From positions 206,481-270,480 of the forward strand of contig PFAD01000008.1 in NCBI GenBank assembly GCA_002773795.1: a stretch of 64,000 nt of DNA, in the 5' to 3' direction. Position 1 is the first letter of the stretch. Each line of letters starts with the position of its first letter. The notes below the pieces were generated by a model. It had not been told where the DNA came from. It worked only from the letters and a program-made list of their open reading frames with translations, and ran no database searches. Positions 37,131 to 38,866 of this stretch are shown one piece after another. The DNA comes from Chlamydiae bacterium CG10_big_fil_rev_8_21_14_0_10_42_34. Its GTDB lineage: Bacteria; Chlamydiota; Chlamydiia; Chlamydiales; SM23-39. The position numbers and the translations under genes were made by a program.

Positions 37131-38069
37131 ATGACTGTTTTCTATCTAATTCTTGGAGTTTTTCTCCTCTACGTTGGCTCTGAGGCTTTAGTCAGAGGAG
37201 GCACCTCTCTTTCTCTGCGATTTAGAATAAAGCCTTTGATCATTGGCCTAACTGTGATTGCATTTGGCACGAGTAGCCCTGAATTATTTGTGAGTGTGAA
37301 AGCTACGTTAGCAGGGCATGGAAATATCTCGGCAGGGGATATCGTAGGCTCCAGTATTTTTAATATTGCCGGGATCTTAAGTTTTTGCGCTTTATTTGGT
37401 GCAATTCCTTTAAAAAAACAGCTTATTAAATTTGATCTACCGGTCATGTTTTTAGGGTATGTGCTTCTTTCCTACTTTTTTTTAACGGGAATGGTCCCGC
37501 GGTGGGCTGGAGTGATGTTGATCTGTTTATTAATCCTGTATCTCCTTGCGATTTACTTGATTCCTAAGCGCAGACTTTTGCAAGAAAAAGAGATTGAGGA
37601 TGAAATTGGTCGTCCCTTAAAAAATGTCTTTTGGGATCTGATTTATATTTTTGGTGGACTTGCCGCACTGATTTACGGCTCTCAGGAGATTATATCATCT
37701 GCTATACATATTGCAAAAGAGATGGGCATTAACGAAGGCAAGGTTTCTTTAGGGATTGTCGCAATTGGGACAAGTTTGCCGGAAGTGAGCTGTTGTTTAG
37801 TTGCTTTATGGTATAAAAGATATGATATTTTGGTTGGAAATTTAATTGGGTCGAATGTCTTTAATGTATTTAGCGTGATTGGGTGTGCAGCAACGATAAG
37901 TCCTATCGAAGTCAATCAAATCAGTTATATAGATTTGTCGATGATGTTTTTTTCAGGAGCGTTTGTATTTCCGTTGCTACAAGAGGAAGCGAAGTACCCT
38001 AGATTTAAGGGGGCGACTCTTTTAGCAGTTTATATTGCTTATTTTTCCCATCTTATTTTTTCCACTTAG
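37131..38069 (+). CDS. Ca2+/Na+ antiporter (CaCA family, YrbG-like)
   Basis: Both alpha-repeats are present (GTSSPELFVS and GTSLPEVSCC). About 10 TM segments. Confidence 0.85.
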   Translation: MTVFYLILGVFLLYVGSEALVRGGTSLSLRFRIKPLIIGLTVIAFGTSSPELFVSVKATLAGHGNISAGDIVGSSIFNIAGILSFCALFGAIPLKKQLIKFDLPVMFLGYVLLSYFFLTGMVPRWAGVMLICLLILYLLAIYLIPKRRLLQEKEIEDEIGRPLKNVFWDLIYIFGGLAALIYGSQEIISSAIHIAKEMGINEGKVSLGIVAIGTSLPEVSCCLVALWYKRYDILVGNLIGSNVFNVFSVIGCAATISPIEVNQISYIDLSMMFFSGAFVFPLLQEEAKYPRFKGATLLAVYIAYFSHLIFST

Positions 38070-38379
38070 CTGTTTTTGCAAGTAAGAAAAGGAGCATGCC
38101 TCCGCTTAAAACAGCAAGAATGGCTGGTACGCTTTTATGCGTCATCGAGTAGCGGATTCCAAATGTTGCTGTGAGTAGGAATGTAAGAATTACCGCAACA
38201 TATGATCCAATGATATTTTCTATAAACATAAGGACTGAACTAATGACTAAGAGCGCCCCAGTTCCTCCTCCAGCCCACAAAGAGATCACGCTTCCCGAAT
38301 TATGATAGCCTAAATAGCCTAAACCCATTAGTAAAATTCCATAAATAAGGACAGCCCAGCTGGTCGATTTTTTTAACAT
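38053..38379 (-). CDS. TMEM14 family small membrane protein
   Basis: GYLGYHNSGSVISLWAGGGTGAL and GIRYSMTHKSVPAILAVLSGGMLLFLLAK are colinear with the TMEM14 motifs GY.K.GSV.SL.AG and G.R....K..PA........AK. Confidence 0.65.
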   Translation of the reverse strand: MLKKSTSWAVLIYGILLMGLGYLGYHNSGSVISLWAGGGTGALLVISSVLMFIENIIGSYVAVILTFLLTATFGIRYSMTHKSVPAILAVLSGGMLLFLLAKTAKWKK

Positions 38380-38386
38380 TTTTTCC

Positions 38387-38866
38387 TCAAAGGTTCGAGA
38401 TACATGTAACCATATTTGTTCCGACTAAAAAAAACACCAAAATTAAAGGATACAAAAGACAAAAACTAGCAAGCCGATCTTTCTTCCAGTATAAAAGAGC
38501 TGCCATGAGCGTATTGCTCCATAGTAAAATCAAAGTTACTAGGGAAAAGAGCATTTGGTTGGCCCCAAAGTAGCTAAGACACCATGTTAACTGGAAAATA
38601 AACTGCGCCAGAAATAGGGAAAGCTCTAATTTCAGAACTCTCAGGGAGTATCTACGCCAAAGGGACCACATACTTAATCCCAGGCTAATCGAGTAGATGA
38701 TTCCCAAAAAATGAGTTGTCAATCCACCTAAAAGCTCGATGCTTAAGCTAATGGAGAGATAGATTCCCAGCCCAAGTAGCTGCTCAGGTCTAGTTCTATG
38801 GCTCGGTTTAAAGATCTGGCCCCAGTATGGGACGAGTGAATCGCTTTTGTAGTGATCAATAGTCAT
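38387..38866 (-). CDS. TspO/MBR-like (tryptophan-rich sensory protein family) membrane protein
   Basis: 159 aa with five hydrophobic segments. LFLAQFIFQLTWCLSYFG...LILLW resembles the TspO core (QL.LN..W...FF). Several conserved Trp are missing, so it is a divergent member. Confidence 0.5.
   Translation of the reverse strand: MTIDHYKSDSLVPYWGQIFKPSHRTRPEQLLGLGIYLSISLSIELLGGLTTHFLGIIYSISLGLSMWSLWRRYSLRVLKLELSLFLAQFIFQLTWCLSYFGANQMLFSLVTLILLWSNTLMAALLYWKKDRLASFCLLYPLILVFFLVGTNMVTCISNL

Follow-up and report, generated by a model that had tools for sequence, protein, structure and literature searches.

Do two genes for small membrane proteins, one related to TSPO and the other to TMEM14, work together where they stand side by side in a chlamydial genome, and would a porphyrin be what they handle? 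TSPO and TMEM14 are small, ancient membrane proteins whose biochemical roles are disputed; each has been connected with the movement of porphyrins in mitochondria. The genes in question lie in a 64,000-nt stretch (the window) of a contig from an uncultured member of the Chlamydiota (PFAD01000008.1, positions 206,481 to 270,480). A preliminary description, made from the letters of the window, had proposed that this TspO-like gene and the adjacent TMEM14-like gene share a role in porphyrin or haem-precursor trafficking. Our comparisons suggest that the observation extends to a family-wide operon, in which a new TSPO subfamily, here termed TspO-L, is combined with TMEM14 and translationally coupled to it. 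We propose, with a confidence that stops just short of even, that this two-gene operon would encode a two-subunit inner-membrane module with a hydrophobic cargo; that the cargo would specifically be a tetrapyrrole, an idea drawn from analogy, is a distinctly more doubtful step.

TspO-L, TMEM14 and the junction between them

On the coding strand, TspO-L is the upstream and TMEM14 the downstream gene, and the junction between them reads TGA-GGAAAAA-ATG. The elements of the pair are:

38387 to 38866, minus strand: TspO-L, the TspO-like gene (159 aa; five-helix TSPO fold as predicted)
38053 to 38379, minus strand: TMEM14/UPF0136-family gene (108 aa; Tmemb_14 domain)
38380 to 38386, minus strand: spacer between TspO-L and TMEM14 (7 nt, read from the sequence)
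38384 to 38388, minus strand: Shine-Dalgarno-like GAGGA, which overlaps the stop codon (TGA) of TspO-L, 4 nt ahead of the TMEM14 start codon (ATG)
38867 to 38963, no strand assigned: divergent intergenic region between TspO-L and Sua5/TsaC, presumably the promoter region of the pair

Reading both open reading frames (ORFs) and the spacer bore out the layout first described, that is, small membrane-protein genes on the same strand and 7 nt apart. A shared strand, a junction that is very short or overlapping, a ribosome-binding site inside the end of the upstream gene and retention of the arrangement in relatives are the marks by which coupling is recognised in sequence, and all are found here. 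Because the junctions are so tight (7 nt here, overlapping in some relatives), TspO-L and TMEM14 are most likely co-transcribed and translationally coupled. Tmemb_14 and TspO_MBR are each represented by one copy in the genome (1.68 Mb, 97.6% complete).

The length of the intergenic region is set by the choice of the Sua5 start, GTG 38889 or ATG 38964. As called, the Sua5/TsaC ORF (38889 to 39848, plus strand) begins at GTG 38889, 22 nt from the TspO-L start; its Pfam match starts only at residue 42, and the in-frame ATG 38964 is the likelier start, which would give a divergent promoter region of ~97 nt. A promoter scan returned 2 promoter-like sites against 3.2 expected by chance, a terminator scan returned 2 terminator-like sites against 1.2 expected, with nothing usable among them, and an Rfam search of window positions 36000 to 41000 gave zero matches.

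The downstream gene belongs to the TMEM14 family, as had been proposed. Its product matches Pfam Tmemb_14 (PF03647) over profile positions 3–91 of 92 (E 1.4e-15; 58.2 bits, cut-off 24.8), and close relatives bear the database names 'TMEM14 family protein' or UPF0136. With a profile of 23 chlamydial TMEM14 proteins, human TMEM14C (2LOS) scored E 9e-16 and TMEM14A (2LOO) 1.7e-12. One of the two motifs originally quoted, GY..SGSV.SL.AG..TGAL, is exact in the translation; the other, G.RY....K..PA...LLAK, is present as well, its last gap being 12 residues long and not 9.

The TspO-like ORF, for which a divergent TspO/MBR protein with five transmembrane segments (TM1–TM5) had been suggested, passed the proposed comparison with Pfam TspO_MBR (PF03073; E 3.6e-8, 33.7 bits, cut-off 24), and the quoted core motif LFLAQFIFQLTWCLSYFG is exact in the translation. 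The match is partial, spanning profile positions 44–137 of 145 and residues 56–148, and covers TM2–TM5 only; against the NCBIfam equivalog for TspO, a tryptophan-rich sensory protein (NF047825), the protein scores 22.7 bits, below the cut-off of 180. An AlphaFold2 (AF2) model computed with 69 relatives has a mean predicted local distance difference test score of 91.9 and a predicted template-modelling (TM) score of 0.84. It shows five helices (residues 26–47, 52–72, 79–101, 105–129 and 131–157). In a Foldseek comparison with the Protein Data Bank (PDB), the ten best matches to this model were all TSPO from Rhodobacter or Bacillus cereus (TM score 0.64–0.72, probability 1.00), while the match ranked after the TSPO structures fell to 0.37. 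Consistent with this, a TspO-L family profile scored E 2e-20 with mouse TSPO, 2e-19 with the Rhodobacter sphaeroides protein (RsTSPO) and 1.7e-10 with the B. cereus protein (BcTSPO).

The TspO-L family is small: 68 cluster representatives match at E<=0.001 among 1.84 billion proteins, and the named relatives are all uncultured metagenome-assembled genomes (MAGs) labelled Chlamydiae, Chlamydiales, Parachlamydiales or, occasionally, Verrucomicrobia. Its members share an invariant S-H-R..E-Q (SHRT.PEQ) ahead of TM1, which reads SHRTRPEQ at residues 22–29 of the window protein. Two basic loops are near-invariant, the TM2-3 loop WRRYSLRVLKLELS (residues 70–83) and the TM4-5 loop, which is FWKKE in the family and YWKKD in the window protein (residues 126–130). 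With five helices, the N-terminal motif and these two loops come to lie on the same face, which would be the cytoplasmic one by the positive-inside rule.

A circular permutation had also been considered, given an N-terminal KPSHR that resembles the KP of the canonical TM1-TM2 loop (LP1) and an apparently missing TM1. It was rejected: in longer family members the N-terminal motif occurs together with an LP1-like loop, and five helices are seen in the AF2 model.

Distribution of the pair and of solitary TMEM14 genes

We surveyed 103 genomes of the window's GTDB family, all of them uncultured MAGs. Tmemb_14 was detected in 83 and a TspO profile match in 62, and in 43 of the 103 TMEM14 is immediately preceded, on its own strand, by a TspO-type gene. 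A pattern scan of species genomes, drawn largely from the same species as the survey, placed TMEM14 immediately downstream of TspO-L in 19 of 20 loci. Among 23 distinct junctions, with starts assigned by eye via the conserved start M-[LIV]-K-K-[ST]-T, we found a 7-nt overlap (ATGTTAA), ATGA and TAATG overlaps, and gaps of 1–14 nt that usually contain TGAGG. In one related MAG (L081:2025-2337), the TMEM14 that follows TspO-L is broken into two frames, and in another (L077) the two genes are ~165 nt apart compared with the usual 10 or so.

The association is asymmetric, in that TspO-L almost never occurs without TMEM14 while TMEM14 often occurs without TspO-L. High-scoring TspO-L (>=120 bits, that is, at least 120) is found in 37 family genomes, 36 of which also carry TMEM14. 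G018 has TspO-L without a TMEM14 match, and in G094 the two genes are 985 nt apart. The lower-scoring TspO matches lack the N-terminal motif and are located elsewhere; they represent a canonical paralogue that is carried by 26 genomes, and in 11 of these the pair occurs as well. As judged from these profile matches, TspO-L is a lineage-specific paralogue confined to one family of uncultured Chlamydiota.

TMEM14 has a much wider range. Across 400 Chlamydiota genomes it was found in 290, and TspO-profile matches in 177; it is nearly absent from two chlamydial families (0 of 29 genomes, which are ~1.1 Mb in size, and 2 of 23). This distribution is that of an old, phylum-wide chlamydial gene that is usually solitary. 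Two TspO-type genes, in tandem or near each other, were noted in other chlamydial families at G325:C12:82778-83765, G420:C4:1434702-1435683 and G315:C6:4514-9644, and a high-scoring TspO match in G276 contains two internal stops and is a possible pseudogene.

With respect to habitat labels, more than half of the sampled words from window positions 37500 to 39500 were found in two DNA runs labelled groundwater/aquifer metagenome, and all of them in a third run, which may be where this DNA comes from.

Proposed cooperation between the two proteins and the putative cargo

In the mechanism we favour, TspO-L would have arisen in the family ancestor between the TMEM14 and Sua5 genes, an origin that fits the presence of superoxide dismutase (SOD) and Sua5 genes near solo TMEM14 genes in other chlamydial families (L005, L007, L009). 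The two proteins would cooperate, with TMEM14 forming the core and TspO-L an accessory subunit or a regulatory one; the N-terminal motif and the basic loops of the putative cytoplasmic face would be what is conserved in TspO-L, and the canonical ligand pocket would not. The cargo would be a small hydrophobic metabolite, for which the analogy with TMEM14C and TSPO makes a tetrapyrrole (protoporphyrin(ogen) or haem) the foremost candidate. In a stronger version, which we regard as unlikely, TspO-L would have kept the TSPO fold, surrendered the ligand pocket and turned into a dedicated subunit of a TMEM14 transporter. A predicted complex of TspO-L and TMEM14, run without controls, scored 0.00 against a mark of 0.32 and weighs neither way.

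Several observations speak against this proposal, some bearing on cooperation as such and others on the porphyrin. Sua5 flanks the pair in 22 of the 23 distinct loci and a homologue of a 287-aa ORF (ORF287) does so in 17. Because these flanking genes are conserved just as well, adjacency is not a strong functional signal; alone it is no better than background synteny and may reflect a low rate of rearrangement. One partner is split or carries an internal stop in 4 of the 43 pairs (G090, G091, G097, G122). Whether the adjacency recurs elsewhere had been named as a check at the outset: it does within the family, at the frequency given above, and in the rest of Chlamydiota, the phylum to which the comparison extended, there is no case among 61 genomes with both genes located among the matches listed. 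In 49 of these the two genes fall on separate contigs; in the other 12 both lie on one contig, at least 34.5 kb from each other. The 61 are the genomes with coordinates among the matches listed and form a partial census, a further 146 and 47 matches being unlisted. Since adjacency is confined to one Chlamydiota family, the TspO-L/TMEM14 pair is, as far as these genomes tell, not a general bacterial module. None of 15 partnerless TMEM14 loci (13 in other families, 2 in the window's family) has a TspO-like ORF within 1.5 kb.

Synteny in the absence of shared function would explain part of this pattern. Two unrelated small membrane proteins would be encoded in a rarely rearranged block, with their spacing due to genome compaction; the conserved flanks, the SOD and Sua5 genes around solo TMEM14 genes, the small genomes (1–2.8 Mb) and the occurrence of TMEM14 without TspO-L in most of the phylum are all in line with it. 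We nevertheless consider it rather improbable, in view of same-strand junctions of −7 to +14 nt in all 23 distinct pairs, the near-constant company of TMEM14 wherever TspO-L occurs (36 of 37 genomes) and the strong conservation of TspO-L, which is distinct from the canonical TspO sited elsewhere in 26 family genomes. The functional link thus rests on co-orientation with coupled junctions and on the one-sided dependence of TspO-L on TMEM14.

As to the porphyrin, LP1 (a W..L.KP.W.PP-type signature) is deleted in the window protein, in which 1 of 25 LP1 columns is filled and the loop at this site is TTHF (residues 50–53). Longer TspO-L family members retain an LP1-like loop (W..L..APW...W.LY); it is deleted in the window's genus, and 18 of 92 aligned rows have two or fewer LP1 columns filled. 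Mouse and Rs TSPO have Trp in both pocket columns, which are occupied by Trp in 42 and 80 of the 92 rows. Both tryptophans are missing from the window protein, which has G55 or L54 in one column and L143 in the other; its W15 is followed by no further Trp until W67, and W127 is its last. Judging from motif context, these columns would correspond to BcTSPO W51 and W138. Excerpts of a study of BcTSPO (PMC10598825) state that W51 and W138 are conserved across species, that W51F reduces the affinity for protoporphyrin IX (PpIX) while W138F abolishes its degradation, and that LP1-LP3 contacts hold the pocket intact.

In our alignment, the window's TspO-L represents a derived TSPO paralogue in its most reduced form. 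With LP1 and both pocket tryptophans lost, it probably does not bind or photo-degrade PpIX in the canonical TSPO manner, and the residue pattern points away from canonical porphyrin binding by this protein. Fold prediction and profile matches together indicate that the window's TspO-L is a TSPO by fold and ancestry; it lacks the features tied to porphyrin chemistry. A shared role in porphyrin or haem-precursor handling, as first suggested, is consequently divided: the analogy with TMEM14C and the phyletic pattern described below speak for it on the TMEM14 side, and the missing LP1 and pocket tryptophans of the window's TspO-L speak against it.

An inventory of haem genes, also proposed in the preliminary description, found GluTR (hemA), part of hemB, URO-D (hemE), a HemY-type protoporphyrinogen oxidase near hemE, and ferrochelatase (hemH) in the genome; HemJ, looked for in the same genome, was not found. 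The sole ALAD (hemB) match is partial (profile 199–306, a 127-aa frame at G000:C6:4557-4880), which could mean a fragmented or frameshifted gene or an error of assembly. The haem genes are all remote from the pair: contig 12 carries hemE and hemY, contig 21 carries hemH, and across the window's family TMEM14 and hemH sit on separate contigs or are separated by hundreds of kb. We binned the family genomes by their best ferrochelatase match into strong (E<=1e-13), weak (4e-12 to 2e-5) and none:

Strong match, 70 genomes: TMEM14 in 61, pair in 33, canonical TspO paralogue in 18
Weak match, 13 genomes: TMEM14 in 13, pair in 6, canonical TspO paralogue in 3
No match, 20 genomes: TMEM14 in 9, pair in 4, canonical TspO paralogue in 5

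The canonical TspO paralogue, which serves as an internal control, shows no skew with ferrochelatase (18 of 70 compared with 5 of 20). The difference for TMEM14 between the strong and the empty bin gives a naive Fisher p of 2e-4, which ignores relatedness and genome reduction. Moreover, the pair is kept in 4 of the 20 genomes that have no ferrochelatase match (G081, G090, G091, G114), and TMEM14 is present in 6 of 12 ferrochelatase-negative genomes that are at least 90% complete. The skew of TMEM14 with hemH is a mild hint at tetrapyrroles for TMEM14 and is neutral for TspO-L. By analogy and by this weak skew, a porphyrin role for TMEM14 is plausible; for the pair as a whole, a tetrapyrrole role would be an extrapolation from the names of the two families.

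The 13 family genomes with a weak ferrochelatase match only (for example G101-G105, G029, G036 and G116) score 23–46 bits in frames of ~284–334 aa. Most of these matches span only about the latter half of the profile (starting at position ~62–106), and the proteins could be a divergent chelatase.

If the cargo were a lipid, TMEM14 would act like FAX1 and TspO-L like the sterol/lipid-binding side of TSPO, in lipid exchange by an intracellular bacterium. TSPO is known to bind cholesterol. The loss of porphyrin-pocket features in TspO-L fits a non-porphyrin ligand, as does the persistence of the pair in the 4 genomes without ferrochelatase. FAX1 is itself a Tmemb_14 protein, described in excerpts of PMC4344464 as a plastid fatty-acid exporter with chlamydial relatives. 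Set against this, the locus contains no lipid-metabolism genes, the best scores of the TMEM14 profile are those with TMEM14C and TMEM14A in a comparison that included no FAX structure, and TMEM14 presence skews with hemH. On balance, lipid handling strikes us as improbable.

The genes on the TMEM14 side of the pair raise one further possibility. They include:

36506 to 37129, plus strand: Fe/Mn SOD (N-terminal Pfam domain at 19.7, below the cut-off of 27)
37131 to 38069, plus strand: Na+/Ca2+ exchanger (TIGR00367, 206.7 bits), between the SOD and TMEM14 genes

In an oxidative or membrane-stress module, TspO-L would be a stress-responsive regulator acting on or in parallel to TMEM14 and tied to the neighbouring SOD. 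An Fe/Mn SOD gene adjoins TMEM14 here, in several other chlamydial families (among them the three loci mentioned above) and in 5 of the 23 pair loci in the flanks examined, and those literature abstracts that we drew on connect bacterial TSPO with stress. The SOD gene is convergent and not co-oriented with the pair, it is missing from 18 of the 23 pair loci within the flanks examined, and the promoter, terminator and Rfam scans yielded no regulatory element. We rate this explanation as very doubtful and retain the two-subunit module with a hydrophobic cargo as our working proposal.

The SOD has a hydrophobic, signal-like N-terminus (MFRILVALIVCFSSLSS...). The 3' end of the convergent exchanger gene overlaps that of TMEM14 by 17 nt. 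A Na/Ca exchanger (PF01699) is present in 13 of the 103 family genomes, including G000 and one of its 13 congeners, there on another contig; because it is so rare among relatives, the exchanger at this locus looks like a recent insertion. ORF287 (35633 to 36496, plus strand) has a sub-threshold Pfam SH2 match (E 0.0021; 18.6 bits, cut-off 21). Its homologues lie on the TMEM14 side of the pair, and the ORF may encode a protein that is conserved among chlamydiae and bears a eukaryote-like domain. A gene for an RDD protein is also among the neighbours of the pair.

Relation to known TSPO and TMEM14 systems

The statement that the pair is not a described module held up: no description of it was found in the open full-text literature, as judged by titles and abstracts and with subscription journals outside the search, and a search of the same scope found no description of a chlamydial TSPO. 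Nor does a review of TSPO binding partners (PMC8243069) mention TMEM14, an operon or any word beginning with chlamyd-. The mere presence of Tmemb_14 in Chlamydiae is already known, as the paper on plant FAX1, which mediates plastid fatty-acid export, notes such relatives in the excerpts available (PMC4344464). From the sequence evidence, the lineage-specific TspO-L/TMEM14 operon itself is real and undescribed in the searchable open literature.

An operon that joins the TSPO and TMEM14 families offers a concrete hypothesis of cooperation and two small bacterial proteins on which it can be examined. TspO-L forms grade naturally from those with LP1 to those without it, and this series is a ready experiment on the roles of LP1 and of the pocket tryptophans. 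Should TspO-L be a dedicated subunit of a TMEM14 transporter, the operon would provide the first genetic evidence that the two families act in one pathway or complex, and a simple bacterial system for TMEM14 transport substrates. The importance of the pair is limited by its restriction to one family of uncultured environmental chlamydiae.

FAX1, listed as a Tmemb_14 fatty-acid exporter in excerpts of PMC9333335 as well, differs from the chlamydial TMEM14 by its plastid transit peptide, four helices and fatty-acid export, and no TSPO-like partner has been described for it. Vertebrate TMEM14C and TMEM14A share with the chlamydial protein the Pfam family and the motifs G..GY..(A/G)S..SL..G and RY/RF...K..PA. 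TMEM14C resides in the mitochondrial inner membrane, whereas the chlamydial protein would reside in an inner membrane of the Gram-negative type. The excerpts of PMC9333335 implicate TMEM14C in protoporphyrinogen IX import in erythroid cells, a role without a clear counterpart where haem is made in the cytoplasm. TMEM14C is not reported to have TSPO as a partner.

The bacterial TSPO proteins of known structure, RsTSPO (PDB 4UC1/4UC3/8E7X) and BcTSPO (PDB 4RYI), have the five-helix fold in common with TspO-L, as well as the Trp of TM3 (W95 in the window's TspO-L), that of TM4 (W116) and the Asn of TM5 (N151). In contrast to these proteins, TspO-L carries an extra N-terminal SHR..EQ segment and strongly basic TM2-3 and TM4-5 loops, the window's genus lacks LP1, the window protein lacks both pocket tryptophans, and the gene is joined to TMEM14 in an operon.

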